Translations under genes and position numbers: made by a program | In this document: positions 1-41,069 of the stretch, in pieces | How positions within the stretch are numbered: the stretch's first letter is position 1 | How the letters are laid out: each line of letters starts with the position of its first letter | Virus record (IMG/VR): IMGVR_UViG_2541047748_000013 | Direction: 5' to 3' (one strand) | Source: a virus | Lineage: Duplodnaviria; Heunggongvirae; Uroviricota; Caudoviricetes | DNA: 41,069 bases | Notes under the pieces: model-generated | What the model was told of the DNA's origin: nothing | Seen by the model: the letters and a program-made list of their open reading frames with translations, nothing else | The model's database searches: none

Positions 1-516
1 ATGAAATTTAAAAAATGTCTTCTGCCTGTGGCAATGTTAGCGTCATTCACTCTGGCAGGATGCCAGTCAAATGCTGATGATCATGCCGCCGATGTTTATC
101 AAACCGATCAACTGAATACCAAACAAGAAACTAAAACCGTTAATATTATTTCCATTCTTCCCGCAAAAGTTGCCGTAGACAACGCCCAAAATAAACGGAA
201 CGCACAAGCCTTCGGCGCGCTTATTGGCGCTGTCGCTGGCGGTGTTATCGGCCACAACGTCGGGTCTGGCAGCAATTCCGGAACGACGGCAGGTGCAGTT
301 GGCGGCGGAGCTGTAGGCGCGGCAGCGGGTTCTATGGTGAATGATAAAACCTTAGTGGAAGGTGTTTCTTTAACATATAAGGAAGGCACCAAAGTGTATA
401 CCTCCACCCAGGTGGGTAAAGAGTGCCAGTTTACGACAGGTTTAGCCGTTGTTATTACCACGACGTATAACGAAACGCGTATTCAGCCAAATACCAAATG
501 TCCTGAAAAGAGCTAA
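1..516 (+). CDS. Glycine-zipper outer-membrane lipoprotein (Pcp/SlyB-like); host flank or Bor-like moron
   Basis: ATG at window position 1; signal peptide with lipobox LAGC; long Gly/Ala-rich glycine-zipper segment (GALIGAVAGGVIGHNVGSG...GAVGGGAVGAAAGS). Confidence 0.6.
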   Translation: MKFKKCLLPVAMLASFTLAGCQSNADDHAADVYQTDQLNTKQETKTVNIISILPAKVAVDNAQNKRNAQAFGALIGAVAGGVIGHNVGSGSNSGTTAGAVGGGAVGAAAGSMVNDKTLVEGVSLTYKEGTKVYTSTQVGKECQFTTGLAVVITTTYNETRIQPNTKCPEKS

Positions 517-531
517 TAATCAGGAGGAGTC

Positions 532-1071
532 ATGAAGAAAGTTTTTCTTTGCGCCATCTTAGCCTCCTTAAGCTATCCGGCTATCGCCTCATCATTGCAG
601 GATCAACTCTCGGCTGTCGCAGAAGCGGAACAGCAAGGTAAAAATGAAGAGCAAAGGCAGCATGACGAATGGGTCGCGGAGCGCAACAGGGAAATCCAGC
701 AAGAGAAGCAACGTCGCGCAAACGCCCAGGCCGCGGCTAATAAAAGAGCGGCAACGGCAGCAGCGAATAAGAAAGCTCGTCAGGATAAACTGGACGCCGA
801 AGCCACTGCGGACAAAAAACGCGATCAAAGTTATGAAGATGAGCTACGTAGCTTAGAGATTCAGAAACAAAAACTGGCGCTGGCGAAAGAAGAAGCCCGC
901 GTCAAGCGCGAAAACGAATTTATCGATCAGGAACTGAAGCACAAAGCTGCGCAAACCGATGTGGTGCAATCTGAAGCTGACGCAAACAGAAATATGACTG
1001 AAGGCGGTCGCGATCTGATGAAAAGCGTGGGTAAAGCAGAAGAGAATAAATCAGATAGCTGGTTTAACTAA
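532..1071 (+). CDS. Secreted charged coiled-coil protein of unknown function
   Basis: RBS AGGAGG about 7 nt upstream of ATG; N-terminal signal peptide (AIASS); K/E/Q/R/A-rich low-complexity body; 16 bp after previous gene. Confidence 0.55.
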   Translation: MKKVFLCAILASLSYPAIASSLQDQLSAVAEAEQQGKNEEQRQHDEWVAERNREIQQEKQRRANAQAAANKRAATAAANKKARQDKLDAEATADKKRDQSYEDELRSLEIQKQKLALAKEEARVKRENEFIDQELKHKAAQTDVVQSEADANRNMTEGGRDLMKSVGKAEENKSDSWFN

Positions 1072-1108
1072 ACGATGTTAGTAACTTCAAACCTATAATT
1101 CTTTAGGA

Positions 1109-1143
1109 TAAAAAAACCCTCTGTAGTAACAGAGGGTTTTGTT
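1109..1143. terminator. Bidirectional intrinsic terminator between the lipoprotein pair and the lysis cassette
   Basis: A-run, stem CCCTCTG/CAGAGGG, T-run (aaaaaaaccctctgtagtaacagagggttttgtt). Confidence 0.6.
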
Positions 1144-1289
1144 CATTCATAGTGCAGGGTCAAATCATTCCCACTCAATTATTTACGATAACCATAACCA
1201 ATTGAGTGATAACATTTTTCCAAATCTCAATTTTTCCCGTACCGTTTTATATACCGTCACCGGAAATCAGTACCATGAAAAATGCCATG

Positions 1290-1772
1290 CTATCTGGTCA
1301 AAGTGTCGTACTGTTTTTCGCAGACTCTTCCGGCTTCGGCTGCCCGGTCAGCATACTCTGCCAGTTGTCTGTTTCTCTCGAGAGATTTGCTGAGCACGTC
1401 GGCAAGCAAAACTCCGGTGTCTGCGGCTGACGACCCAGCGCCGACAATGGCGTTATACTGCCTGAGCTGCTCACGGATGGCAAAGAGTTGTTGCTGCAAC
1501 CGGCCAGCGCTAGCGGCAGCATCAAGAGCATCATTGCGCGCCTGGTCGATCCTCTGCTGAGCTTCACGTTCATTGGTCACTTTCTCCTGTTCGTAGTACT
1601 GACGAACTTTGTCTTCTTCGGCTTTGCGGTCTTCTTCCGCCTGAGCATACCCGGCATCGTACTGGCGACTGCCGTGTATATTCCAGGCAACCACTCCTGA
1701 TATGACCAGAACAGCAAACACTGCCACGATAAGAAACTGTTTCCAGTATGCTTTTACGAATGCCCAGATCAT
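1290..1772 (-). CDS. Rz-like i-spanin
   Basis: N-terminal TM helix, charged coiled-coil periplasmic body, immediately downstream of endolysin with 4-nt overlap; contains an embedded out-of-frame lipoprotein ORF. Confidence 0.7.
1298..1534 (-). CDS. Rz1-like o-spanin lipoprotein embedded within Rz in another frame
   Basis: Lipobox LALAGC, Pro-rich mature part, fully embedded in the Rz reading frame; start chosen at internal Met pair, start uncertain. Confidence 0.5.
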   Translation of the reverse strand: MMLLMLPLALAGCSNNSLPSVSSSGSITPLSALGRQPQTPEFCLPTCSANLSRETDNWQSMLTGQPKPEESAKNSTTL

Positions 1773-2398
1773 ACCGCCAGCACCTTACTGGCAGTGATGT
1801 ACCGCGCTCGCCGGTCGTCGATGCCGTTCCGGCCACCATTGATAATCAGAGTTACACGTGCAATATCGCCGGTATACTTCATGCATCCTTTGCTGGCGAA
1901 GAACCACGCCGCGCTACGAGCCGCATATCCGTCCTGCGCCAGCAGTTCAGGGCTCTCCAGCAGGTCAACCTTCAGACCGTTTCCGCAATCACGATAGTTA
2001 TTCAAACCGGTAATCTGGATAAGTCCGCGCCCTCGGTAATTCCAGCCATCACCAGGGGCATTGTTCCCCATGCGTTTGCTGTATACCAGATTTGCGATCG
2101 CGCGCTGGCGCTCAAGTGGCAATGGTGGTTCACCAGCACGGCGCCCCAGTGCATTAGCCTGCCCCTGAGTGAGACGCCCAGCCCGAACGAAGTTAGCCAG
2201 TCCGCTGACACTGTAGTTGAAATTCTCCTGCAACCTGGTGAAGCCCCCAGACTCATGCCCGACTTGAGCAATAAACATTGCCTGATCTTCTGCTTTGCTG
2301 ATACCAAACTCTTTCATCGCAGAAGTTATATGCGAGAACCAGCGTGCGGCCAGTGCCTCGCTGATACCAGCAGCTCGCTGGAATTGTTTAATCTCCAT
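1769..2398 (-). CDS. Endolysin, glycoside hydrolase family 19 (chitinase-like lysozyme)
   Basis: Motifs QVGHESGGF and [12 protein letters not shown] typical of GH19; start placed at ATG (MEIKQ) with GAGG RBS 8 nt upstream rather than the longer listed ORF. Confidence 0.85.
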
Positions 2399-2696
2399 GT
2401 TTAGACCTCGATACTTTAAAAATTTGAACGACGTTACCGCGCGTTTTAATAACCGCAGCCAGCATGACAGCGTTGATAATGACCTCAGATAAATCCACAG
2501 CCATTGGCGTACGTAACCAGATTGCATAGGCGACTCGAACAGGAATACTGGCCGCAGCAACAATCAGGAAATAAGCAAGCCATCCTCCCCACCTTCGATG
2601 TTGAGAGCCGTTACGCCGGAATGTGACAACGCGAATTGCTATGCCAGTGCAAATAACTGCATTGGTGATAAGCAAAAAAAACTCATGCGTTACCAT
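2388..2696 (-). CDS. Lysis-cassette membrane protein (holin/antiholin-like)
   Basis: 102 aa with 2-3 predicted hydrophobic helices, positioned between putative holin and endolysin. Confidence 0.45.
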
Positions 2697-3087
2697 CGTC
2701 TTTTCTCCCCGGAATTAACTCGCGTGGATTATCGGAACGGTGATAGAGCCATATACCAATACGCACAGCGACAATTGCTGACACGAATGCGCCTGCAGAG
2801 AAAACAATCCCTTTTTCAAAAGAGTCCTGCGTGATGGTAGGGATCAGGCTGGCTATGCCGATAAGAATTGATGCTGCTGGTTTGTAAAAGAGAAGGCCGC
2901 AAAGAAAGCTGAGCATCGACAGGAGCACCCGGCGACGGATGGGGTACTCTACTGCAGAGGTAACAAAAATTACCGCCCCAGCCAAAGCCCCTAAAGCAAC
3001 CTCCGGAGGGACACCTGCAATAACCGCAGCAAGAGAACCAAAACTAAGCAACTGATTTAATTGCTCACTTGTTACTTGAGCAGACAT
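2683..3087 (-). CDS. Putative holin
   Basis: 134 aa, several hydrophobic helices, charged C-terminus, first gene of the lysis cassette. Confidence 0.5.
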   Translation of the reverse strand: MSAQVTSEQLNQLLSFGSLAAVIAGVPPEVALGALAGAVIFVTSAVEYPIRRRVLLSMLSFLCGLLFYKPAASILIGIASLIPTITQDSFEKGIVFSAGAFVSAIVAVRIGIWLYHRSDNPRELIPGRKDDGNA

Positions 3088-3368
3088 ACTTTCTCCTGTT
3101 TACTATCTATAAGCCAGTCAATTATTGATGACTAACCCCGCATAGTAAACCATATATGAATCATTATTGTTCCATATCATATATCTCAATAAAAGTACTA
3201 ATGATTTTACAGAACGAGCCAGCAGAGTGGGGGCAGTTGTACAGGAACCATAGACTTAATTTTGTATTTAATAATGCTATGGTGTAATAAACCTGAACAT
3301 GTATTTAAAATACGTACTGATTCATGATAGAATTCAAAGATAACTTTTCACAAACTCCGTTTTTGATA

Positions 3369-3395
3369 CCCGCAAAATATTGCGGGCTTTTTTTT
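3369..3395 (+). terminator. Hairpin plus T8 run in plus orientation abutting the tailspike stop
   Basis: cccgcaaaatattgcggg followed by ctttttttt; no U-run in the minus orientation. Confidence 0.35.
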
Positions 3396-6300
3396 AACGT
3401 TCTTCCAGAGACTGAATCCGCTCTTTTATCTTATCCATTTCTCTGCGCTGCCATGCTGCCTCGATATAGAATAAGAGATCAGGTCTGACCCCCCATCTAG
3501 ATCCTGCTGGCGTTATTTCAACGCGCTCAATGATGTCTTCCATTACCATCACTGGATTATCATCCTCATCAACAATGATGCTCCCGTCATTATCAGTCAG
3601 CGGCATTTCCCTTTGGCCAGTAATGACGTCATCATATACTGCGGGATAATCGTCATAGCAAAGAAAGGCATAGCGGCATGTTGTGCTTTCTTCTTCCATG
3701 AGTCCGTGAGAAATAAGAACATCACGAAGTTGCTGCGCGATTACACCATGATGTATCCTCGCCCCTTCTTCCCCCTTTATAGCGACAGCGTTCAGCCATT
3801 TATAAGCGATATACCTGACGTCACCCCAGGCATCCAGCAATGCTTCGTCAGGAGAGACCGGCTCTGTCTTTAATGTTCCGTCACTGGTAACCACAGGATT
3901 GGAGCCAAGATAAACTGTCGAGAACCTGTTTCCCGGACCACCAAGAGCATTTACATTATCAAGATAAGGTTTAACATCTCCGTTCTCAAAAAGATGTTCG
4001 AGTGCGTTATATACCGCGCGACGTGGAGTACTGCTTCCGGAACCATGCAACGTTATCATTGCACCATCTGCTGAAGACGTTGTTTCACCGCCGCTAACGA
4101 TTAATCTCTGAGCGGTAACATCATCAGACGGTACTTTCTTCGCAATAATGGCGTAATTACCCTCAAGTTTGACTTCCGCGCGAACTTGTCCTGATGTACC
4201 TGCATGGACAGTCAGTGACTGGACGGCAACATCATCTGTGAAATCAACGGGTACAGGAACCGTCCTCACGCCTGACGTCGACATAAAAGTAGGAAGCGTT
4301 CTGTTAGGAGTGGCTCCGTAGACAAAATCCCTTGAAACAAATTCTTCCTGTTTAATTTTCACCCTGAAACAATACAAATCAGCCGGGTGACCATCGTGAA
4401 CATAAGGATATTTTCTGTTGTTATCCCCTATGCTCCATGGGTTTAGAAAGTCTTCCCCACCGAAAATGTAGTACAGCCAGTTGTCTTTGATACAAACTGA
4501 ACCAACACCAACCGCAGAGTTAACTATTCCGCCCTGATAAATCTGATCAGTAACATTAACCCACTCTACATTATCCAGACTCCACTCATTGACGTTAACT
4601 CTGGTCATAAATGTTCTTGGATAATTTCCTGCATAACGGTTATCAGGTTCTCCTCCTTCCCACTCACCAAATGCGCGCTCACTGCCAAAAATAATCAGCT
4701 CATCGCCAACTTTGGCAAAAGGAAGGTTTGAGTGATGAACATTATTTGGGAAGCGAAGAGAATTCCATGATGTACCTAAATCAGAGCTTCTGTGCAATGA
4801 ACTACCGGGTTGAGTACTTAATGTCCCCCTGGTCGTCAGATACAGAATGCCATCATAATATTTTACACATGGCTCAGATGCATTCGCCTCATATTCTACA
4901 GGTATGCGTCTGCGAACAAAGCTACCAGGAGAACCGAAAGCATCAGAGAAATAGAGTATCCCAAGCTCGCGTGGACCAATATCACCATTATGGTAGCCAA
5001 CAGCAAAACTGTTATCGCTAATCGTCGCAAAACTGTGAATCTCAGTAACAGGAGTGCTTCCGTCAACAAAAGAAGGAATAGTTCCAAGACTGGTTTTTCT
5101 CCATGGTGACGAGTGAAATGATGTACCAAAACTCCAGTATCTACCCTCGTTATTCTGATCCACATCCTGGGTATTTTGCGTCGTAACTGTAAAAGTATTT
5201 TTATCAATAACAGTAGTCACCGTCATATTCCCGGTAACACCTGTAACACCAGAGTTTGAGAAGTTGACAAAATCACCAGCAAATAATCCGTGATCAGTAA
5301 TGCGAATATAAGCGACTTGCTGATTTGCTGCTTTCGTTATACCACCATAAACGCGAAGGCTGCGACTCATTGGGCGATCCCACAACTCTGCAACCTGCAG
5401 TTTATTTCCGCTCACGGTCCGCGTCTCAATTACAGCAAAAAGGCGATTTCTGACAACCCCCATACTCATGCAGTGATAGTTAACTGTGGGATAGTTTTCA
5501 TGTAAATCTGTAAGCCATTCCGGCGTTGTCCAGGTCTTCCCGTCATCTCCTGAGCGAACCCATGCAACATGGAGGTTATTTACACCATGGCGGTCTCCAG
5601 CCATAAAAGGCGCATAGATGACATTGTCATATACAAACGTTTTATCCTGCGTCCAGGCGTTGTACCACGGTGTATCTGTAATTTTAAATAACTCTCCCTG
5701 GATAAAATCTTCAGAAGCATAAAAAAGAGGCTGGCCCGGTATTCTCTCAAATAAAAAACGAGCATTTTTAAATCGACTGACATCCGGAAGAGTTGATACT
5801 TTAAAAGTAAGCCCTAATCCGTCAATTTTATAACCTGGAGATGAGGCTTCAAGGCACGCGCTTATTGCAGTGGAATCGTCATTTATACCATCACCAACAG
5901 CTCCAAAATCTTTGGGGCTAATAGCATCACGCATTTTATCCTGGAACGTTCGGTACACAGCCCCAGAACCATACTGAATAAACCAACCAAAACCACCAAC
6001 AACCCCGGCGATTGCAGCATCGACATAATTACGCATTGAGCGATTATTTACAGCGTCCTGCTCAAATGATGGATCTGCAAGGTTAGAAATTTTGTTTTGC
6101 TTTGCATCGTAATATTTTGCAAGCAAAGATGGTTTCATCAATGCACGTCTGAACCACCCAAAACATTGCTGGATCAGCATCGTCAGGTAGTCAAAGGCAT
6201 CTTCATGCACTTCGGGGAAAAATTTTCCCTGATTGCGAAGGTCTGTCTCCTGCACTACATCAAGCACACGATCTATCGTAATTCGCCATCCAGTAGCAAG

Positions 6301-6513
6301 CGGAGACGGAAGAACCACAGAACCGCCACTATAAGTGCCCGCCCCAGTTACCGTATAACCGGTATCCAGAACCAATTCTGTTACGTTCCCGTTCAGGTCA
6401 GACACCTGAACAACCAGGTCTGATTTTCTGAAAATTCGAAAAGTATACGGAAACGATGTCGTAACGCCGTTACCGGTGTATTCGTTGTGGTCAACTTCGG
6501 TTGAGACCGTCAT
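3394..6513 (-). CDS. Tailspike/tail fiber: T7 gp17-like N-terminal adaptor, sialidase-like Asp-box beta-propeller, C-terminal S74-type intramolecular chaperone
   Basis: N-terminus resembles podovirus tail-fiber anchoring domain; Asp-boxes SGDDGKTW and SSDLGTSW; DFGAVGDGINDD motif; C-terminal SDGTLKT...HGVIAQQL region resembles autoproteolytic chaperone domain. Confidence 0.8.
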   Translation of the reverse strand: MTVSTEVDHNEYTGNGVTTSFPYTFRIFRKSDLVVQVSDLNGNVTELVLDTGYTVTGAGTYSGGSVVLPSPLATGWRITIDRVLDVVQETDLRNQGKFFPEVHEDAFDYLTMLIQQCFGWFRRALMKPSLLAKYYDAKQNKISNLADPSFEQDAVNNRSMRNYVDAAIAGVVGGFGWFIQYGSGAVYRTFQDKMRDAISPKDFGAVGDGINDDSTAISACLEASSPGYKIDGLGLTFKVSTLPDVSRFKNARFLFERIPGQPLFYASEDFIQGELFKITDTPWYNAWTQDKTFVYDNVIYAPFMAGDRHGVNNLHVAWVRSGDDGKTWTTPEWLTDLHENYPTVNYHCMSMGVVRNRLFAVIETRTVSGNKLQVAELWDRPMSRSLRVYGGITKAANQQVAYIRITDHGLFAGDFVNFSNSGVTGVTGNMTVTTVIDKNTFTVTTQNTQDVDQNNEGRYWSFGTSFHSSPWRKTSLGTIPSFVDGSTPVTEIHSFATISDNSFAVGYHNGDIGPRELGILYFSDAFGSPGSFVRRRIPVEYEANASEPCVKYYDGILYLTTRGTLSTQPGSSLHRSSDLGTSWNSLRFPNNVHHSNLPFAKVGDELIIFGSERAFGEWEGGEPDNRYAGNYPRTFMTRVNVNEWSLDNVEWVNVTDQIYQGGIVNSAVGVGSVCIKDNWLYYIFGGEDFLNPWSIGDNNRKYPYVHDGHPADLYCFRVKIKQEEFVSRDFVYGATPNRTLPTFMSTSGVRTVPVPVDFTDDVAVQSLTVHAGTSGQVRAEVKLEGNYAIIAKKVPSDDVTAQRLIVSGGETTSSADGAMITLHGSGSSTPRRAVYNALEHLFENGDVKPYLDNVNALGGPGNRFSTVYLGSNPVVTSDGTLKTEPVSPDEALLDAWGDVRYIAYKWLNAVAIKGEEGARIHHGVIAQQLRDVLISHGLMEEESTTCRYAFLCYDDYPAVYDDVITGQREMPLTDNDGSIIVDEDDNPVMVMEDIIERVEITPAGSRWGVRPDLLFYIEAAWQRREMDKIKERIQSLEER

Positions 6514-26129: not shown

Positions 26130-26206
26130 GTGGCATTAGCTCAGTTGGACAGAGCAACCGCCTTCTAAGCGGTTGGTCGCAGGTTCGAATCCTGCATGCC
26201 ACGCCA
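26130..26206 (+). tRNA. tRNA-Arg (anticodon UCU)
   Basis: Manual cloverleaf: acceptor GTGGCAT/ATGCCAC, D-stem GCTC/GAGC, anticodon stem ACCGC/GCGGT with loop CTTCTAA, T-arm GCAGG-TTCGAAT-CCTGC, discriminator G, encoded CCA. Confidence 0.9.
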
Positions 26207-29053: not shown

Positions 29054-29391
29054 ACTATTAATTTCGTTTCATGCCAGCCTTTAGTCACCCAGCATTGCGA
29101 GTCACCATCACACGGGCATGAATTCACAGGAACTCTCTCGCCGCACTTACCGCAACGTTTTCTGCTGATCGATTTTATACGCCCGTGCACGCGTGCATCA
29201 TCCTGGCGGATCAGTAACGCTATATACTCACCAAATTCGTAAGGCGCACGCCCGGGGCGACGCGTGGCACAGTTACGCTCCAGCATTTCAATTTCCTGAG
29301 CATCAAGCACAATTTCCAGCTTACGCACACCAGATGCAGCTTGTCTGGCTCTCTGAGCGGCTTTGCGCTCTGCTGCTGATTTAGCCATCAA
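29050..29391 (-). CDS. Zn-ribbon protein (C-terminal CxxC...CPC), candidate late-gene regulator
   Basis: 113 aa; basic Ala/Arg-rich N-terminus and Cys4 cluster CGKCG...CPCDG; last gene before late terminator and terminase. Confidence 0.5.
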   Translation of the reverse strand: MMAKSAAERKAAQRARQAASGVRKLEIVLDAQEIEMLERNCATRRPGRAPYEFGEYIALLIRQDDARVHGRIKSISRKRCGKCGERVPVNSCPCDGDSQCWVTKGWHETKLIV

Positions 29392-29662
29392 TATTCACCT
29401 TTATCGCGAACACCTTTACCGGTTTATCGCCGAAGTGGGGATGTGTGATTGTCTTGATTTCATATCCGTCATACGGAATATCAATTCTGCGGCTGGAATC
29501 GTCGCGCTTCGGATATCCCTTTGTGATAATCAGGCGGTCATACTCGCGGAACATAATTCGCTTATTCCAGTAGTCATTACACAGGCGATACTCTTCCGTT
29601 TTCTCTCCGCGAATCATGGCATCGAAGTATTCACCTTTAACGGCAAGTTGCAGGTTAGCCAC
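29381..29662 (-). CDS. DUF3850/ASCH-like (PUA-fold) phage protein
   Basis: 93 aa; recalled resemblance (VKGEYFDAMIRGEKTEEYR). Confidence 0.5.
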   Translation of the reverse strand: MANLQLAVKGEYFDAMIRGEKTEEYRLCNDYWNKRIMFREYDRLIITKGYPKRDDSSRRIDIPYDGYEIKTITHPHFGDKPVKVFAIKVNIDG

Positions 29663-34108: not shown

Positions 34109-34693
34109 ATGAAAAGTATCCAGGACGTCCGCAGGCAAAATCTCAACGACTTGATCGACCGTGAATTCAATGGTGTTCAGACGCGGATGGCTGAAAAACT
34201 TGGAACTCAGGCAAATCTGGTAAACCGCTGGGCTCTTGGCAAGAAGGTTATCGGCGACCAGGTTGCACGAAAAATTGAAGCTGCCGCCAATAAACCCCGT
34301 AACTGGCTTGATATTGATCGCTCGCTTTCTCAGGAGGGTTTTCAGCCTGTCGGCCCGAGCGATATAGGTCAGCTGGCGGCTCACAACCTGGAACGCTGGA
34401 TGAGCGAAAGCCGCGACCTTTCAACGCAGGGAAAACTACACCGCGCATCCGGCGTCGCCCAGGTGACAATCAGCCGCCTGTTAAACAATGAGGTCAGCGT
34501 TTCCATTTCCACCCTGGAGAATGTTGCATCCGCATTCGGGCGTCACGGCTATGAATTACTGATTCACCCGCACGACCCTGCGACCATCAACTATGATCGC
34601 TCGCGCTACGCATTGTTACCCGAAACCGAGAAAGCAAAGATCGAAAGTTACATTGAATTTGTCATCAACCAGAACGAAAAAAACAAACAATAA
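34109..34693 (+). CDS. CI-type repressor with tandem HTH domains and no S24 peptidase domain
   Basis: 194 aa; two XRE-like HTH segments; no Ala-Gly/Ser-Lys autocleavage domain visible; short leader. Confidence 0.6.
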   Translation: MKSIQDVRRQNLNDLIDREFNGVQTRMAEKLGTQANLVNRWALGKKVIGDQVARKIEAAANKPRNWLDIDRSLSQEGFQPVGPSDIGQLAAHNLERWMSESRDLSTQGKLHRASGVAQVTISRLLNNEVSVSISTLENVASAFGRHGYELLIHPHDPATINYDRSRYALLPETEKAKIESYIEFVINQNEKNKQ

Positions 34694-34715
34694 AATCATA
34701 TTTTTCAGTAAGTAA

Positions 34716-34738
34716 GCCGCCTTCTGGCGGCTTTTTTA
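34716..34738 (+). terminator. Intrinsic terminator after the repressor gene
   Basis: GCCGCC ttct GGCGGC followed by T6. Confidence 0.6.
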
Positions 34739-34750
34739 TTGCCTATACGA

Positions 34751-34784: not shown

Positions 34785-34812
34785 TTGACATCAAACCAGA
34801 TACGCATAATCA
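34785..34812 (+). promoter_or_regulatory. Putative early-left (PL-like) promoter
   Basis: TTGACA at 34785-34790, CATAAT-like -10 around 34805-34812, bracketed by two operator dyads. Confidence 0.45.
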
Positions 34813-34827
34813 TTACCTCAACGGTAA
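34813..34827. promoter_or_regulatory. TTACC-N5-GGTAA dyad just downstream of the PL-like -10
   Basis: TTACCTCAACGGTAA. Confidence 0.5.
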
Positions 34828-34846
34828 CAGACCGAGGTAACAAGTT

Positions 34847-35008
34847 ATGCAGTGGAAAATCATCAACGGTTGGTACTGCGTTACTGCATGCGGATTCATG
34901 AGCTGGAAGTTCCGCACCTTACAGGAAGGCATTAAGTGGGCTTTCGTCAGCAAAGAAGCTCGCGATGTGGCAAACGATAACGAGATATGGGAGGAGGTTA
35001 GCAAATGA
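34847..35008 (+). CDS. Small Trp-rich protein, first gene of early-left operon
   Basis: 53-codon ORF not in supplied track; GAGGT RBS 7 nt upstream; stop overlaps next start (ATGA). Confidence 0.4.
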   Translation: MQWKIINGWYCVTACGFMSWKFRTLQEGIKWAFVSKEARDVANDNEIWEEVSK

Positions 35009-36039
35009 GTGAATTATCAATCATCGAAATCACACCAGATATGGCACCAAGAATTTACGTTGAAAAAGGACTAGAAAAGTTTCTCGAGCAGATCCGCGAA
35101 GGTGTTAATGAAGTGCCTGACATTAGCACAGACAAAGGAAGAAAGCGCATTGCATCTCTGGCTGCGAAGGTTTCAAGAAGTAAAACAGCGGTAGAAAAAC
35201 CAGGACGTGATTATCTGAAACGCCTGAAAGAACAGCCGAAAGTAGTTGAAGCAGAGTTGCGACGCTTCGTAACCGAATGCGATCGGCTTCGTGATGAAGT
35301 ACGCCGCCCACTCACCGAGTGGGAAAATGCTGAGAAATTACGCACTGAAGCACTGCAACAACGCCTGACAAATTTGCGAGCACTGGCTGACGTGATCGAT
35401 CTCTCCGGAAACTACTTGCCATCATCTGATATTCAGGAACGAATTCAAGAGGCTAAATCAGTAGCACTTGATGAAAGTTGGCAGGAGTACGCAGCAGAAG
35501 CTGGAGTAGCCAAGGATTCAACCATCCAGAAACTGGAAGAATCACTCGCAGTAGCTCAAAAACGCGAGCATGAAGCCGCTGAGCTGGAGCGACTTCGCAA
35601 AGAAGCGGAGGAAAAAGCGCGCATTGAGCGAGAAGAGAATATCCGCCGGGAAGCTGCTGAACAGGCCAGGCTCGAAGCTGAACAAAAAGCGAAAGCTGAA
35701 ATTGATGCTGCGGCACGCCTGGCGGCGGAAGAAAAAGCACGTGCTGAAGTAGCAGAACGTCAGCGAATTGAAGCAGAGCAGCGTGCACGACGCGAAAAAG
35801 AAGAAGCCGTTGCCGAGGAACGCCGACGCCAAGAGGCGGAAGAAAAAGCCCGCCTTGACGAACAGAAGCGTATCGCCGACGAAGAAGCGCGCCGAGCTGC
35901 AGATAAAGAGCATCGCCGTACCGTTAACCGCAGAGTAATCGCAGATCTGATAGCCCAAGGCATTCCCGAAGAATTCGCGCAGAAAGCAATGTTGGCTATC
36001 GCTGGCGGCAAAGTGCAGGACGCGTATATCAAATATTGA
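35005..36039 (+). CDS. Coiled-coil protein with long EAR/K-rich repeat region, unknown function
   Basis: 344 aa; about 120-aa N-terminal domain followed by charged Ala/Glu/Arg/Lys low-complexity region. Confidence 0.55.
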   Translation: MSELSIIEITPDMAPRIYVEKGLEKFLEQIREGVNEVPDISTDKGRKRIASLAAKVSRSKTAVEKPGRDYLKRLKEQPKVVEAELRRFVTECDRLRDEVRRPLTEWENAEKLRTEALQQRLTNLRALADVIDLSGNYLPSSDIQERIQEAKSVALDESWQEYAAEAGVAKDSTIQKLEESLAVAQKREHEAAELERLRKEAEEKARIEREENIRREAAEQARLEAEQKAKAEIDAAARLAAEEKARAEVAERQRIEAEQRARREKEEAVAEERRRQEAEEKARLDEQKRIADEEARRAADKEHRRTVNRRVIADLIAQGIPEEFAQKAMLAIAGGKVQDAYIKY

Positions 36040-36040
36040 G

Positions 36041-36346
36041 GTGGGTATGAACGTTAATCAGCAGAAAAATCTTCAAAAAATCATGCTGGCATTCGACAAG
36101 GACTACCGCCTGTCAGAACAGCTATATGACCGACAAGTTGAACTGATCGATAGCATCCGGCTTCATCAACTGGCCTCAACTTTTGACGCTGTAACAGGCA
36201 AAGGAGTTCGCCAGGAAGTGCTGGAGGCTGCTAAAGACAGCCCTGAGTTCGAAGAACTGACAGATTCCTACCGGCGCGAGGCAATGGCAATTATCGCACG
36301 CTGGGATCTGGCGGATCGGATTGATGGGCAGAGGGAAGCGGCATGA
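36041..36346 (+). CDS. Hypothetical protein preceding the exonuclease
   Basis: 101 aa; 1-nt gap from previous gene, 4-nt overlap with next. Confidence 0.5.
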   Translation: MGMNVNQQKNLQKIMLAFDKDYRLSEQLYDRQVELIDSIRLHQLASTFDAVTGKGVRQEVLEAAKDSPEFEELTDSYRREAMAIIARWDLADRIDGQREAA

Positions 36347-37242
36347 TGCAGAACGCTGGAATCATGGATAGAACAAAATACATCGGAGGAAGCGATGTTG
36401 CAGGGATTCTTGGAATTAGCCCATGGCGCACCCCGCTTGAGGTTTATCTGGATAAGGTCCAGCCACGTGTCAAACCAGTAGACCCAAGCAAGCAGAAAGT
36501 TTTCACGCGTGGCCAGCGTATGGAGCCATACGTAATAGACCTGCTTTCTGAGGAAACAGGGATGGAAATCGTTCATCGCGGAAACCGCTATATCCACCGT
36601 GATTACGATTTTATTGCAGCTGAGATCGATGCAGAAGCAGCGTCAGGCGAGAACATTGAGATCAAAACAGTTAGTCCGTTCAAAGCCAAAGAATGGGGAG
36701 AAATCCAGACAGATGCAATTCCTGTGCATTACACGGCCCAGGCCATGCACGGGTTGATGGTTACAAACAAACAGGTATGCGTTTTCGGTGTGCTTATCGG
36801 TGGCGACGACTTCCGAATCTATCGGGTTGAGCGTGATGAAGAAACTATCCAGGCGATCTTAGAAAAAGAAATCGCTTTCTGGGACCGAGTGAAAAATCTT
36901 AACCCGCCGGAAGCTACCAGCGTAAGCGATGTATCGCTGATGTTTGAGAAAGATGCCGGGACAAGTATCGAGGCTGACGGAAAGGCACTCGCACTATTCA
37001 ACGATCTACGAGACATGAAGTCACGCAGAAAATCACTGGAAGAAGAAATAGCTATATCAGAAGAGAAGCTGAAGATGTACATGCAAGAGCACTCAGTCCT
37101 GACCCTGGACGGAAAGCCGCTCTGCACATGGAAATCTCAGATCAGCAACAGATTCGACCAGAAGCTATTCCAGTCAGTACACCCTGAGTTATTCGAAAAA
37201 TTCAAAACAACAACGACACAACGCGTCTTCAGAATGAAGTAA
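36343..37242 (+). CDS. YqaJ-type recombination exonuclease (lambda Exo-like)
   Basis: YIGGSDVAGILG motif and PD-(D/E)xK-like region; immediately upstream of RecT-like gene. Confidence 0.8.
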   Translation: MMQNAGIMDRTKYIGGSDVAGILGISPWRTPLEVYLDKVQPRVKPVDPSKQKVFTRGQRMEPYVIDLLSEETGMEIVHRGNRYIHRDYDFIAAEIDAEAASGENIEIKTVSPFKAKEWGEIQTDAIPVHYTAQAMHGLMVTNKQVCVFGVLIGGDDFRIYRVERDEETIQAILEKEIAFWDRVKNLNPPEATSVSDVSLMFEKDAGTSIEADGKALALFNDLRDMKSRRKSLEEEIAISEEKLKMYMQEHSVLTLDGKPLCTWKSQISNRFDQKLFQSVHPELFEKFKTTTTQRVFRMK

Positions 37243-37251
37243 GGAGAAAAA

Positions 37252-38274
37252 ATGTCTATCAATGCACTTAAGGCAGCGGCTACCGGTAACCAAGTTGCAC
37301 ATCATAATGAGAAACTAACAACTCTGGCCGGACTTCTGGCAGACCCAAAAATTAAAGCTCAGATGGCTTTGGCACTTCCAAAGCACATGACAGCAGACCG
37401 TCTGGCGCGCATAGCAACCACAGAGATCCGAAAGGTTCCAAAACTTGCATCATGCGACCAAGCCAGCTTCCTGGGGGCAATTATGCAATGTGCCCAATTG
37501 GGTCTTGAACCAGGCGGAGCTCTTGGACACGCTTACCTGATACCGTTCGACAAACGCCAGAAAGTAAATGGAAGATGGGAAACCGTATCTACAGAAGCAC
37601 AGCTGATTATCGGCTATCGCGGAATGATTGACCTTGCCCGCCGCTCTGGGCAGATCCTGAGTATCTCGGCTCGTACCGTACATACAAACGACAAATTCAG
37701 CTACTCATACGGCCTGGAAGAAACGCTCGAGCATTTACCTTGCGAAACAGGTGACCGCGGAGAATTAACGCACGTTTACGCCGTTGCACGACTGAAAGAT
37801 GGCGGAGTCCAATTTGAAGTTATGAGCCGGGCAGACATTGAGAAAGTTCGTGCACTGAGCAAAGCCGGTAGCAGTGGCCCATGGGTTGATCACTTCGATG
37901 AGATGGCTAAAAAAACAGTAATTCGCCGACTATTCAAATATCTTCCTGTTTCTATTGAAATGCAGAAGGCTGTTGTTATGGATGAGCGCGCTGAAGCTGG
38001 ACTTAGCCAAGATAACGCAGCTGTTATCACTGGTGAATATTCCGTAGTTGACGATGAGCGTCAACACCTGTCGCCAATTTCAGATTCAGAACGAGAAGAA
38101 GCTCGAGAATATATCATCGCGATACTTAATAGCCTGGATCCATCTGCTGAAGATGCAAAAACGATGTTCAAGCGCGCTGAAAATGAGATTAACACCATGG
38201 CTGAAAAGCTCGGTGATGAATATCACCAAAAATTCATGATGACGCTTAACGATATGCGTCCAGAATTCGAGTAA
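37252..38274 (+). CDS. recT: RecT-family single-strand annealing protein
   Basis: 340 aa; AAGGAG RBS; recalled RecT-like core (GYRGMIDLARRSG). Confidence 0.8.
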   Translation: MSINALKAAATGNQVAHHNEKLTTLAGLLADPKIKAQMALALPKHMTADRLARIATTEIRKVPKLASCDQASFLGAIMQCAQLGLEPGGALGHAYLIPFDKRQKVNGRWETVSTEAQLIIGYRGMIDLARRSGQILSISARTVHTNDKFSYSYGLEETLEHLPCETGDRGELTHVYAVARLKDGGVQFEVMSRADIEKVRALSKAGSSGPWVDHFDEMAKKTVIRRLFKYLPVSIEMQKAVVMDERAEAGLSQDNAAVITGEYSVVDDERQHLSPISDSEREEAREYIIAILNSLDPSAEDAKTMFKRAENEINTMAEKLGDEYHQKFMMTLNDMRPEFE

Positions 38275-38323
38275 CCACCACCGCGGTGCCACACGCGCCG
38301 CACTGCAACCAAGAGAGGTATTT

Positions 38324-38572
38324 ATGAAAGGTGCATTAGGTAAGAAGGAACTCCTGGCGGTGGTGCCACTGTCATGGAGCACTATCGACCGTATGGAGCG
38401 CGCAGGGGAATTTCCTAAACGCTGGTATATCACTGACAAACGCTGCGCATGGAACCGTGACGAAGTTGAGCGTTGGCTTGATGAACGTCAGGCAGCAAGC
38501 CCGGCAGAGTTCCAGGGTAAAAAACCTCCTGTTCAGCAACGTGTATATCGTCCTGTGAGCAACGCGGCATGA
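38324..38572 (+). CDS. AlpA-family regulator / excisionase-like protein
   Basis: 82 aa; MerR-type HTH pattern typical of AlpA/Xis; GAGG RBS. Confidence 0.65.
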   Translation: MKGALGKKELLAVVPLSWSTIDRMERAGEFPKRWYITDKRCAWNRDEVERWLDERQAASPAEFQGKKPPVQQRVYRPVSNAA

Positions 38573-38681
38573 GTGTGCTGCTAAGGCACTGGAGCAAATG
38601 GTCAGGATGGTACTTATTCCTGGCCTCTGTTTCAGCATGGCTTTATCTGCTGGCATTAATTTTCAGAGAGGGTTGGATTAA

Positions 38682-38981
38682 GTGAGAAAGTTAAGCCGAC
38701 TTGAAAAATATCACATGAACAAGGTTTCAATGCGCAGCCCTTCAAAGGTTGTTGCCGTTACTCCTGCGGCGATAGAGATCGAAAAACGCGCGATTGAAAG
38801 AGAGAAAAAAGGGCAATTCCGCATTGCCGCTCACCTTTGGCTTCAGTGTATGGATGTTGCTTCTGGTGATGTTGAACGTGCAAGGATCGCGGTTCGCAGG
38901 GACCAATGTATCACAAAAGGTAACGGCCTTCGCCGTGGCGACTATAGCGGCATAGGATGTTGTGGGGTGGTTTATGACTAA
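38682..38981 (+). CDS. Possible PerC/ANR-family regulator
   Basis: 99 aa; Trp/Arg pattern (RIAAHLWLQCMDV...ARIAVRRDQC) loosely resembles PerC; GTG start assumed. Confidence 0.4.
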   Translation: MRKLSRLEKYHMNKVSMRSPSKVVAVTPAAIEIEKRAIEREKKGQFRIAAHLWLQCMDVASGDVERARIAVRRDQCITKGNGLRRGDYSGIGCCGVVYD

Positions 38982-39624
38982 GAAATACACACTAATCTAT
39001 GCAGATCCACCCTGGGTATACCGGGACAAAGCCGCAGATGGTAATCGCGGTGCCGGTTTTAAATATCCGGTTATGAGTGTGCTGGATATCTGCCGCCTTC
39101 CTGTGTGGGATTTGGCCGATGAAAACTGTCTGTTGGCCATGTGGTGGGTGCCAACACAACCACTCGAAGCACTAAAAGTTGTTGAAGCCTGGGGATTCCG
39201 TCTGATGACCATGAAGGGCTTCACGTGGATAAAATGTGGTAGTCGACAACCAGATAAACTGGTTATGGGTATGGGACACATGACTCGCGCCAATAGTGAA
39301 GATTGCCTGTTTGCGGTAAAGGGAAAACTACCTACGCGCATTAATGCAGGGATCGTTCAGTCATTTACCGCACCGCGGCTTGAGCATTCAAGAAAGCCAG
39401 ATATCGTTCGTGAAAAACTTGTGCAATTATTAGGCGATGTTTCTCGCATTGAACTGTTCGCCCGCCAGACGTCTCATGGCTTCGATGTTTGGGGTAATCA
39501 GTGCGAAGACCCGGCAGTGCAACTACACCCTGGATACGCGTTGGATATTGGCGGATTAACAAATGCATTCAGCAATGCTCCGCTGTCACCAACAGACAAC
39601 CAGGGGCGGGAGCGTGCTGCATGA
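38974..39624 (+). CDS. MT-A70 family N6-adenine DNA methyltransferase (orphan)
   Basis: DPPW catalytic motif (YADPPWVY); no adjacent restriction endonuclease gene. Confidence 0.8.
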   Translation: MTKKYTLIYADPPWVYRDKAADGNRGAGFKYPVMSVLDICRLPVWDLADENCLLAMWWVPTQPLEALKVVEAWGFRLMTMKGFTWIKCGSRQPDKLVMGMGHMTRANSEDCLFAVKGKLPTRINAGIVQSFTAPRLEHSRKPDIVREKLVQLLGDVSRIELFARQTSHGFDVWGNQCEDPAVQLHPGYALDIGGLTNAFSNAPLSPTDNQGRERAA

Positions 39625-39815
39625 ACAGGGCATCACCAGCAGATTTAAGAAAATGCCTTGAAACTGCAAACATGCTTGCACACAGCGGGATCAGGTTTGT
39701 TCCAATTCCCGCTGTCACTGATGCTGAATTTGCAACACTGTCAGCAATATTCGAAAACAAAATTGAATCACTGGCAGCAGAAGCAGAGATGGAAGAAAAT
39801 CAGCAGAACTATTAA
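39621..39815 (+). CDS. Small hypothetical protein adjacent to integrase (DUF1382-like?)
   Basis: 64 aa; ATGA overlap with methyltransferase stop. Confidence 0.4.
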   Translation: MNRASPADLRKCLETANMLAHSGIRFVPIPAVTDAEFATLSAIFENKIESLAAEAEMEENQQNY

Positions 39816-39818
39816 ACG

Positions 39819-41069
39819 TTATTCCCCCGCCATCCACTTCTCAAACTTCGACGGGGAGAACGGAATCAGATCCGTATGCTCCCCGTCAATCCATGAATCA
39901 ATCATATCGGCCCACTGCTGCAACATGTAGGCGCGCTGTCTGGCGTATTCCGCTTTGTTATATACGGCGCGCACACCTTTCTGCTCATGTGCCAGAGCCT
40001 TTTCAATCCAGTCTGAAGGATAACCAGCCTCATGCAACAACGTACTGGCTGTACGGCGCATATCATGTACAGTGAAGTCCTGAATATGCTCACCATCTTC
40101 ATTTATTATTTTCACCGTTCTGTCGATCAGAGAGTTCAGCGCGGCATTAGATAATGGCTTCCGGAAATTGTAACGACCAGGAACCAGATATTCACTTCCA
40201 CCAGCGCACATCTGCAACCCGACCAATATATCCTGTGCCTGTTTAGGCAGGTAAATAACGTGCGCCCGGCTTCCCTTCATGCGGTCTGGAGGAATTGTCC
40301 ATGTCCATTTTTTAAAATCTATTTCATCCCACGTTGCATTGGTGAATTCGCCCTTACGAACCATAGTGATAAGCACCAGTTTTAAAGCCATTTTCATAGT
40401 GCCCATAGCACCAATGGCATCCAGCGTGCGGAAGAACAGGCCAATTTCTTCTGGTGTCAGTGTTCGCTCTCGTGGTTTAAATATGGCGATAGACGAAGGT
40501 TTAATGTCAGCCGCAGGATTAAACAAACCATGACCACGGTCATTGGCGTGACGGTATACGCTACTGATGATCTCCCTGGCCTGCACTGCTGTTGCCCGGC
40601 CACCGCGTTCGACAATCCGGTCACACAAATCACGAACCATCGATGTGGTAATTTCAGCCATCATTTTATTGCCAAGAACCGGAAGTATGTCACGGTCGAT
40701 CACCGCCTGTTTCATTGCGCGGGTACTGTCAGCCAGGATGACGTGTTTCATATAACTGTCGGTATGTACCGCAAACGTCTCGGCACCACGAATCTTTTTG
40801 ATACCGTCACGTTTAGCCGCAGCCGGTGACTGGCCTGCTTTAAGCAGCTTCTTTGCAGCAATCAGTTCTTCTCGCGCTTCTGCCAGGCTGATACCGTCAT
40901 GCCCATACTGCCCGATTACCAGTGTTTCGCGGCGACCGTTGATACGGTAGTCATAGCGAAACGAGACCGTGCCTGACGTAAGCACAGCTACATACAGCCC
41001 GTCACGATCGGAGACCTTGTACAGTTTGTCCTGCGGCTTGAGGTTTTTTAATTTTGTATCGGTAAGCAC
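39819..41069 (-). CDS. int: Tyrosine integrase, P4-type; 5' end runs off the window
   Basis: N-terminal LTDTKLKNLKP arm-binding-type motif; C-terminal R...HxxR...Y-type catalytic region (HDMRRTASTLL, VRAVY); ORF open at window edge. Confidence 0.85.
   Translation of the reverse strand: MLTDTKLKNLKPQDKLYKVSDRDGLYVAVLTSGTVSFRYDYRINGRRETLVIGQYGHDGISLAEAREELIAAKKLLKAGQSPAAAKRDGIKKIRGAETFAVHTDSYMKHVILADSTRAMKQAVIDRDILPVLGNKMMAEITTSMVRDLCDRIVERGGRATAVQAREIISSVYRHANDRGHGLFNPAADIKPSSIAIFKPRERTLTPEEIGLFFRTLDAIGAMGTMKMALKLVLITMVRKGEFTNATWDEIDFKKWTWTIPPDRMKGSRAHVIYLPKQAQDILVGLQMCAGGSEYLVPGRYNFRKPLSNAALNSLIDRTVKIINEDGEHIQDFTVHDMRRTASTLLHEAGYPSDWIEKALAHEQKGVRAVYNKAEYARQRAYMLQQWADMIDSWIDGEHTDLIPFSPSKFEKWMAGE

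Follow-up and report, generated by a model that had tools for sequence, protein, structure and literature searches.

The MT-A70 methyltransferase identified beside the integrase is given about an even chance of being an early-operon, Dam-like, GATC-specific orphan N6-adenine DNA methyltransferase of the MT-A70 (beta-class) clade. The window, that is, the whole stretch of Caudoviricetes DNA analysed here, comprises 41,069 nucleotides. The original prediction had placed in its integrase-proximal block an orphan methyltransferase of the DPPW type beside AlpA-like and PerC-like genes, and this identification was right. The methyltransferase with its DPPW motif, the AlpA-like gene, the PerC-like gene and a small overlapping ORF were all recovered at the predicted positions by Pfam, PHROG and the sequence itself, and the bounds given for the block, 38324 and 39815, are exactly the AlpA-like start and the DUF1382 stop. 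Three roles had been proposed: protection of phage DNA from restriction, epigenetic action on promoters, and a regulatory pair with the PerC-like protein. By analogy with published relatives the first of them, restriction protection by DNA methylation, appears the best supported. The features are the following:

34785..34813, + strand, predicted sigma-70 promoter of the early-left operon (TTGACA-17-AATCAT, 10/12, a consensus match only)
38324..38572, + strand, AlpA-like excisionase / transcriptional regulator, 82 aa (Pfam Phage_AlpA, E 3.1e-5)
38569..38685, + strand, predicted membrane protein, 38 aa (phrog_17484 "membrane protein", 4.7e-27)
38682..38981, + strand, PerC-like small helical protein, 99 aa from GTG (Pfam PerC, 30.1 bits)
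38974..39624, + strand, MT-A70 methyltransferase, 216 aa from ATG (Pfam MT-A70, E 2.8e-22)
39004..39015, + strand, catalytic motif IV DPPW, residues 11-14 (read from the sequence)
39621..39815, + strand, DUF1382 protein, 64 aa (Pfam DUF1382, 103 bits; phrog_292)
39819..41069, - strand, P4-type tyrosine integrase (Pfam Arm-DNA-bind_3, Phage_int_M and Phage_integrase)

The block (38324-39815) comprises five overlapping plus-strand genes converging on the integrase. The overlaps between successive ORFs are 4, 4, 8 and 4 nt, and the DUF1382 ORF ends 3 nt from the convergent integrase stop codon. The AlpA-like ORF also matches phrog_66 "excisionase and transcriptional regulator" (2e-16) and is syntenic with epsilon15 gp33 and phiV10 p36. 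Its stop codon is overlapped by the ATGA start of the 38-aa membrane ORF, the counterpart of phiV10 p35 and epsilon15 gp32. The methyltransferase ORF has an alternative GTG start at 38962, and its stop is overlapped by the ATGA start of the DUF1382 ORF, whose protein is 51% identical to the DUF1382 gene product encoded downstream of the methyltransferase in Stx phage PA8.

Along its full length the window shows 99.995% identity to a prophage in the E. coli strain SF-468; it is a phiV10/epsilon15-like Uetakevirus, with the integrase adjoining guaA. The methyltransferase gene is ordinary and already known: phiV10 and hundreds of genomes have it annotated, and of 5426 complete E. coli genomes 539 (about 10%) carry it as "MT-A70 family methyltransferase". 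Among the Uetakevirus relatives examined it is syntenic in phiV10, epsilon15 (77% identity between the methyltransferases) and Tyrion, and a homologue is also carried by SPN1S and SPC32H. A first scan of IMG/VR recovered near-identical phiV10-like prophages only, with no added diversity.

What could be established directly for the gene is its family, fold and motifs, the purifying selection on it, its orphan status and the layout of its operon. The protein scores 79.9 bits with Pfam MT-A70 (PF05063; cut-off 23.9), and the match spans the entire profile (positions 1-172 of 172). Its motif order is permuted: DPPW comes close to the N-terminus and precedes the SAM-binding elements, and a conserved S-R-K-P-D element lies at residues 139-143; both elements are kept among the homologues and can be aligned with Tetrahymena MTA1. 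Across 26 homologues Pro12 and Trp14 never vary, while Asp11 and Pro13 are at least 90% conserved; across 68, Trp14 is invariant, the other three DPPW residues are nearly so, and 37 alignment columns show no variation. A conserved core (residues 1-187) is followed by a variable 29-aa tail. The AF2 model (pLDDT 81, pTM 0.80) predicts a METTL3/MTA1-like Rossmann fold, the top Foldseek matches being METTL3 and Tetrahymena MTA1 (E 4e-14, TM 0.66-0.69). Purifying selection on the gene is strong, with dN/dS of 0.04-0.08 against four relatives and synonymous sites saturated.

The prediction that no restriction enzyme lies nearby was borne out in the prophage of SF-468, where the RefSeq annotation contains neither an endonuclease nor a second methyltransferase. 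In PADLOC the methyltransferase was matched by "Type II methyltransferase" models only, and nothing was found for the AlpA-like, PerC-like and DUF1382 ORFs or for three upstream early-operon ORFs. The prophage annotation holds no endonuclease gene paired with the methyltransferase, which places it outside the Type II restriction-modification systems.

The early-left operon is formed, in this order, by small ORFs, a RecE-like exonuclease, RecT and the AlpA/Xis-like, 38-aa, PerC-like, methyltransferase and DUF1382 genes. The predicted promoter lies just beyond a terminator-like hairpin (34714-34733) located 3' of a repressor-like HTH gene. From this promoter to 39815 no further plus-strand promoter or terminator was predicted, no internal promoter, terminator or RNA element was found in the block, and the sole Rfam match (34681-34739) falls outside it and far below threshold. 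On this layout the block would be the far end of a repressor-controlled early operon.

Since the methyltransferase gene occupies the second-to-last place in the early-left operon, the enzyme would be made after induction or infection and not in the quiet lysogen, its translation being coupled to that of the PerC-like gene. It would be a second, unrelated "Dam", binding S-adenosylmethionine and flipping the target adenine into the DPPW pocket. Outpacing the limiting host Dam, it would bring all 160 GATC sites of the phage genome to full methylation during replication; once packaged, the DNA would be protected in the next host against GATC restriction that is sensitive to methylation, and MutH cutting at unmethylated GATC would be avoided during RecET recombination. 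Both the timing of expression and the biological benefit we infer; E. coli already has Dam, and what a second GATC methylase would add is conjectural. The number of sites itself gave an uninformative observed/expected ratio (0.76), and GATC avoidance or enrichment was dropped as a clue to specificity.

GATC is the most likely target, as taken from published relatives. The primary source for one of these, M.EcoGV, is Fang et al. 2012, whose result is given here second-hand. According to PMC10810198, M.EcoGV expressed alone from a plasmid methylates GATC in vivo and is "highly similar" to M.EcoPA8orf6770P of the Stx2a phage PA8, and in PMC6602927 (Table 3) it is tabulated with GATC specificity. 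M.EcoPA8orf6770P is identical at 207 of 208 positions to the methylase of the O104:H4 Stx phage P13374, and the equation of this O104:H4 phage methylase with M.EcoGV, taken from the Koudelka paper, rests on its "highly similar" statement. PhiBZS1_p32 of the Serratia phage vB_SspM_BZS1, expressed in a dam- host, yielded DNA resistant to MboI and sensitive to DpnI and is GATC-specific, as is the Tn1549 enzyme M.EfaBMDam (PMC7556043). Since M.EcoGV, BZS1_p32 and the Tn1549 enzyme all recognise GATC, this specificity appears to be conserved across the bacterial MT-A70 clade. Several points count against the GATC reading. The window protein lacks a target-recognition domain of its own, and the MT-A70 enzymes of eukaryotes depend on partner subunits.

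A different substrate is suggested by the same Stx-phage enzyme, for which PMC10810198 reports GATC methylation of DNA as well as PNB-2-dependent methylation of 16S rRNA. M.EcoPA8orf6770P is reported to bind PNB-2, the product of the upstream gene, 1:1 to form a two-subunit 16S rRNA methyltransferase, which preferred 16S rRNA and 30S subunits more than 13-fold over DNA and is reported to raise the induction of Shiga-toxin phages; the purified enzyme alone had almost no in vitro activity on dam- DNA (PMC10810198). Both the preference for rRNA and this near-inactivity count against the GATC reading. The sites reported in 16S rRNA are 832, 1098/1100, 1132 and 1190. The C-terminal 27 or so residues were proposed by the authors as needed for the complex with PNB-2 (PMC10810198).

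By extension, the window methyltransferase could be the catalytic half of an RNA methyltransferase with two subunits, in which a small co-translated PerC-like or DUF1382 partner directs it to 16S or other RNA; host translation would be altered, and so would how often the prophage is induced. This reading is considered unlikely. It draws on the 83% identity between the cores of the two enzymes, on the 8-nt overlap of the PerC-like gene with the methyltransferase start, and on the recurrence of PerC/ANR-like genes in the upstream position. However, no PNB-2 homologue was found in the whole window (tblastn; one hit of E 5.3, at chance level), and the tail that would bind PNB-2 is unrelated. The published rationale, ribosome protection from Shiga toxin, is inapplicable to a phage lacking stx, and overlapping starts are a general feature of these phage operons.

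The PerC-like ORF, the candidate partner, exceeds the Pfam PerC cut-off (22.6 bits) and matches phrog_868 (6.5e-62), its match to ANR_neg_reg (23.6 bits) being below the threshold of 32; in phiV10 the gene is annotated in an 88-aa ATG form. It has a dN/dS of 0.09-0.11. PerC and Pch activate transcription at LEE1. The AF2 model of the window protein contains four helices with weak MIT/TPR-like matches, and neither an HTH nor another nucleic-acid-binding fold was found in it. That it might be a remote homologue of PNB-2 was rejected, as BLASTP returned nothing and profile-profile comparison gave a probability of 0.15%.

Three separate phage lineages have PerC/ANR-like genes just upstream of a methyltransferase of this clade: Uetakevirus, another prophage type in which fusions of a MarR-like wHTH with PerC also occur, and BZS1 with a true ANR gene. 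In phage Tyrion the PerC slot is occupied by a MarR-like wHTH gene, and PerC-methyltransferase fused ORFs are present in public assemblies (the natural fusion P0003, for instance). Against a partnership, PerC is absent from 39 of the 52 species-level loci, other genes lie between PerC and the methyltransferase in epsilon15 and Tyrion, relatives act on GATC without any partner, and NinB is equally common upstream (7 of the 57 non-redundant ORFs scanned, PerC accounting for 8). The slot holds 40 unrelated families, which rules out a universal upstream partner gene. Nor does tail type track the upstream partner: the window-type tail occurs with PerC in phiV10-like phages, with the wHTH of Tyrion and with unrelated ORFs (L085, L094), and the PA8-type tail accompanies either PNB-2 or a 76-aa protein retaining only the PNB-2 C-terminus.

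For the regulatory pair of PerC-like protein and methyltransferase that had been proposed, the evidence is gene order, which is suggestive. Being recurrent and not universal, PerC/ANR-like genes make such a partnership a minority possibility. A broader proposal is that PerC/ANR-like and small winged-helix proteins (PNB-2, Tyrion gp30) are interchangeable partners of a bare MT-A70 core and that here the PerC-like protein gates the substrate, for which the chances are slim; such gating may, for example, shift the enzyme from GATC DNA to RNA or to particular loci. If this were true, the PerC-family "activators" would gain a previously unknown biochemical role.

Epigenetic action in the lysogen, in which low-level methylation of host or prophage promoters would shift expression or the lysis-lysogeny switch, is improbable. 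For PA8, transcription of the homologous gene pair in lysogens, driven by a stationary-phase promoter, has been reported, as has a rise in spontaneous induction due to the pair (PMC10810198). In the window the upstream repressor-like gene has the same orientation, with only the hairpin terminator in between, and read-through is conceivable. However, promoter prediction is empty between 34813 and the methyltransferase gene, and the block, with no predicted internal promoter and a position at what would be the far end of the early operon, lends such a role no support. If GATC is the target, host Dam would already saturate the sites in a resting lysogen, and in methylomes the surveyed E. coli prophage methyltransferases are usually silent in laboratory growth.

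A relaxed or non-specific adenine methyltransferase giving broad protection from restriction, like M.EcoGII, Hia5 and OS31_p25, is very improbable. The protein is small, has no target-recognition domain, and several prophage adenine methyltransferases are non-specific. However, every characterised bacterial MT-A70 member is reported to be GATC-specific, and the papers describe M.EcoGII and OS31_p25 as apart from the MT-A70 members. Hia5 was dropped as an MT-A70 analogue, having been published as a Dam-related enzyme of the alpha class, a different family, with DPPY. Finally, that the gene is an inactive passenger without a present function is scarcely credible: no activity is reported for the orthologue and many prophage methyltransferases leave no detectable motif in methylomes, but the dN/dS values (at saturated synonymous sites), the intact DPPW, the invariant columns and the retention of the gene in E. 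coli genomes and in the Uetakevirus relatives examined all stand against it.

The gene, read here as probably encoding a Dam-like GATC methyltransferase, matters little in itself: it is a prophage accessory gene of a routine kind, and its annotation is correct. Its residual value is that of a natural control for the question of DNA versus rRNA substrate in its closest studied relative, the window orthologue having a core 83% identical without PNB-2, with a different tail and with no toxin. The recurrent PerC/ANR-like upstream neighbour is in turn a cheap lead on the role of the PerC family in phages.

Among known systems the closest is phiV10, whose gp33 (PhiV10p33, YP_512288.1) is 98% identical to the window methyltransferase and is labelled "putative adenine methylase / DNA methyltransferase" by similarity only. 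The neighbours are shared (AlpA, 38-aa protein, PerC, DUF1382 and convergent integrase); phiV10 differs by a fused RecE-RecT gene upstream and is otherwise essentially the same. In PA8, M.EcoPA8orf6770P is 83% identical to the window core (residues 1-187), shares the central loop variant KCGSRQPDKLVMGMG, and also lies in an integrase-proximal early region with a DUF1382 gene next downstream. The differences are a C-terminal tail with no alignment past residue 187, PNB-2 (143 aa) as the upstream gene, and a lambdoid Stx phage as host. Of the M.EcoPA8orf6770P-PNB-2 system the window appears to contain the homologous subunit only, PNB-2 and the matching tail being absent.

METTL3-METTL14, which forms m6A in mRNA, and Tetrahymena MTA1c, which forms 6mA in DNA, have the same fold and catalytic motif as the window methyltransferase. 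METTL3 and MTA1 are the best PDB matches by both sequence and structure, although the identity is about 20-26%. The eukaryotic enzymes are obligate multi-subunit assemblies with RNA- or DNA-binding partners, whereas the phage protein is a bare core of 190 residues. T4 Dam, P1 Dam and M.EcoVT2Dam are examples of orphan phage GATC adenine methylation in Dam-bearing hosts and belong to the alpha class or to PF05869; the window methyltransferase falls outside these families, which serve as the proposed working analogy. PhiBZS1_p32 is 40% identical and belongs to the same bacterial MT-A70 clade with DPPW, differing by a 23-residue insertion in the central loop. Like the window gene, it is an orphan adjoining an integrase and an excisionase, with a PerC-related ANR-family gene directly upstream.

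The block at 38324-39815 comprises five ORFs on the + strand and is met by a convergent integrase gene:

38324-38572, + strand, AlpA-like ORF (Pfam, PHROGs)
38569-38685, + strand, ORF for a 38-aa membrane protein (PHROGs)
38682-38981, + strand, PerC-like ORF (Pfam, PHROGs)
38974-39624, + strand, MT-A70 methyltransferase ORF (Pfam, PHROGs)
39621-39815, + strand, DUF1382 ORF (Pfam, PHROGs)
39819-41069, - strand, P4-type integrase gene, convergent with the block

The five ORFs overlap by 4, 4, 8 and 4 nt in turn, leaving no intergenic space, and the stop codons of the DUF1382 ORF and the integrase are 3 nt apart. All family assignments passed the curated Pfam thresholds with PHROGs in agreement, which bears out the block as described in the original prediction, whose limits are exactly the AlpA-like start and the DUF1382 stop. 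The interpretation offered there is supported in part. The orphan status of the methyltransferase was confirmed by a RefSeq annotation of the prophage in E. coli SF-468 with no endonuclease or second methyltransferase and by PADLOC, which returned only Type II methyltransferase models.

The prophage is a member of the phiV10/epsilon15 group (Uetakevirus). Over its whole length the window shares 99.995% identity with the SF-468 prophage, inserted between guaA and yfgI; positions 1-1071 are host DNA (yfgH, yfgI) to the left of the prophage proper. The MT-A70 gene is already known and annotated: the RefSeq labels in SF-468 are "PerC family transcriptional regulator", "MT-A70 family methyltransferase" and "DUF1382 family protein", and phiV10 gp33, annotated as a putative adenine methylase, shares 98% identity with its product. 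The epsilon15 copy is syntenic and 77% identical. Of 5426 complete E. coli genomes, 539 carry the methyltransferase and DUF1382 stretch at an identity of at least 95%. In about one third of the carrier genomes the methyltransferase keeps this tail but has a gene other than DUF1382 after it; in carriers H119-H121 (e.g. NZ_CP074861.1, NZ_CP095533.1) this is a serine/threonine phosphatase (2/3) or a hypothetical protein (1/3), so the downstream slot is variable as well. Other cargo includes a tRNA-Arg(tct) gene at 26130-26206 (+) and a tailspike gene at 3394-6513 (-) annotated as endosialidase, which makes the K1 capsule the probable target of this phiV10-like prophage.

The sole + strand promoter predicted nearby by consensus scan lies at 34785-34813, just past a hairpin terminator 3' of a repressor-like gene, and no further + strand promoter or terminator was predicted from 34813 to 39815. 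The block thus appears to form the distal end of an early-left operon with RecE-like and RecT genes and, as far as consensus scans alone can tell, would be expressed after induction or infection. The first gene of this operon (35005-36039, +) encodes a protein of 344 aa with a high content of Glu, Ala, Arg and Lys, apparently a coiled coil, with no match in Pfam or PADLOC. The corresponding position in phiV10 is occupied by small ORFs only. A GC-rich hairpin with a 7-bp stem (GCGGTGC-cacac-GCGCCGC) and lacking a T tract lies at 38283-38301, in the interval from recT to the AlpA-like gene, at a place where the epsilon15 annotation has a "transcriptional pausing" stem-loop. The operon and int converge at 39813-39821 with no predicted terminator, so early transcripts would extend antisense into int; the epsilon15 annotation marks an RNase III site in the corresponding position.

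The methyltransferase consists of a 187-residue conserved core, with DPPW at residues 11-14, followed by a variable tail. Its AF2 model (pLDDT 81, pTM 0.80; low-confidence loops at residues 18-28 and about 95-105) resembles the METTL3 catalytic domain and Tetrahymena MTA1, in concordance with the PDB sequence search. The dN/dS values of 0.04-0.08 against epsilon15, PA8, Tyrion and a Buttiauxella prophage, obtained with synonymous sites saturated, indicate a functional gene.

Among studied relatives, M.EcoPA8orf6770P of Stx2a phage PA8 shares 83% identity with the core and matches the methylase of O104:H4 Stx phage P13374 at 207 of 208 residues; PNB-2, its partner encoded upstream, is 100% identical in both phages. 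Purified M.EcoPA8orf6770P alone was reported to be nearly inactive on dam- DNA and to form a 1:1 complex with PNB-2 (Gong, Chakraborty, Koudelka, PMC10810198). This complex is reported to favour 16S rRNA and 30S subunits as substrates and to increase spontaneous induction (PMC10810198); according to a preprint, it also shields ribosomes against Shiga toxin. M.EcoGV, equated with M.EcoPA8orf6770P because it is called "highly similar" (PMC10810198), is cited as methylating GATC in vivo from a plasmid that expresses it alone (PMC10810198), and PMC6602927 lists its specificity as GATC. More distant clade members, BZS1_p32 of Serratia phage vB_SspM_BZS1 (40% identical to the window methyltransferase) and the Tn1549 enzyme, are GATC-specific DNA methylases (PMC7556043).

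The neighbours of the clade were surveyed in 52 species-level genomic loci and 80 viral contigs. The core gene occurs in very different settings (Uetakevirus-like integrase-proximal block, replication module, nin regions after NinB), and PNB-2 and DUF1382 are infrequent neighbours. Of the 52 loci, 13 have a PerC-domain ORF on the methyltransferase strand no more than 1.2 kb upstream of the gene, and no such ORF lies at any other position in the loci. When 57 non-redundant ORFs situated immediately upstream were sorted by Pfam family, PerC ranked first with 8; NinB had 7. One prophage type has an upstream MarR-like wHTH-PerC fusion overlapping the methyltransferase start (Dryocola and Buttiauxella; L101:2567-3010, L103:2546-3004, L104:2492-3004; 147-170 aa, the winged-helix match weak and sub-threshold). 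Logan assemblies contain single-ORF PerC-methyltransferase fusions equivalent to 38682-39624: P0003 fits deletion of a single T from the GTTTATG overlap, and P0001 is internally deleted. Both may be genuine variants or artefacts of assembly. That the PerC-like protein is a partner of the methyltransferase is nevertheless quite improbable: the cases trace to about three lineages and so do not count as independent, a PerC gene is missing from 39 of the 52 loci, intervening genes separate the two in epsilon15 and Tyrion, starts in these operons overlap as a rule, BZS1_p32 and M.EcoGV are active with no partner, and the PerC-like model, a four-helix bundle with weak MIT/TPR-like matches only, has no similarity to PNB-2. 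In Tyrion the upstream slot is filled by a MarR-like wHTH gene. Among Uetakevirus relatives, the gene directly upstream is DndB-like (DGQHR) in some (L092:1937-3004; Salmonella phages SPN1S/SPC32H), and others have an HNH endonuclease gene (L091) or an ORF whose PD-(D/E)XK-like match is weak and below threshold (L089). BZS1 p33 (L219:11704-11886, minus strand), 2 nt upstream of the GATC methylase gene p32, is a true ANR-family protein (50.9 bits, cut-off 32), and PerC-domain proteins beside other clade members give ANR matches below threshold, which suggests that the two small-protein families are related.

The best-supported mechanism, held with moderate confidence, is a Dam-like GATC DNA methyltransferase expressed from the early operon. 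Replicating phage DNA would thereby be fully methylated, would escape GATC restriction and would avoid MutH cutting during RecET recombination. An ASCH-domain protein is encoded at 29381-29662 (-); since the literature predicts that this domain binds modified nucleic acids, the protein could serve as a methyl-mark reader.

Outside PA8, gp37 of Escherichia phage HK639 (L220:1412-1840) is clearly homologous to PNB-2 (55% identity, E 4e-54) and is encoded two genes upstream of an MT-A70 gene whose product is 75% identical to the GATC-specific BZS1_p32 (PMC7556043). PNB-2 is therefore not restricted to Stx2 phages, contrary to the abstract of the preprint, and is found with two diverged branches of the clade. 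In Stx2a phage 06-3462 the 76-aa protein encoded upstream of the methyltransferase (L003:3274-3504) has only its last ~10 residues (LYIDEFENAL) in common with PNB-2, which places the recombination junction just upstream of the methyltransferase start and shows that an intact PNB-2 is missing from some Stx phages. Two of the defining features of the rRNA model fail here: the window has no PNB-2 homologue anywhere, and the C-terminal tail, suggested by the authors to bind PNB-2 in M.EcoPA8orf6770P (PMC10810198), is unrelated in the window enzyme. In addition, stx is absent from this phage. The default is therefore the lone in vivo activity of the core, GATC DNA methylation.
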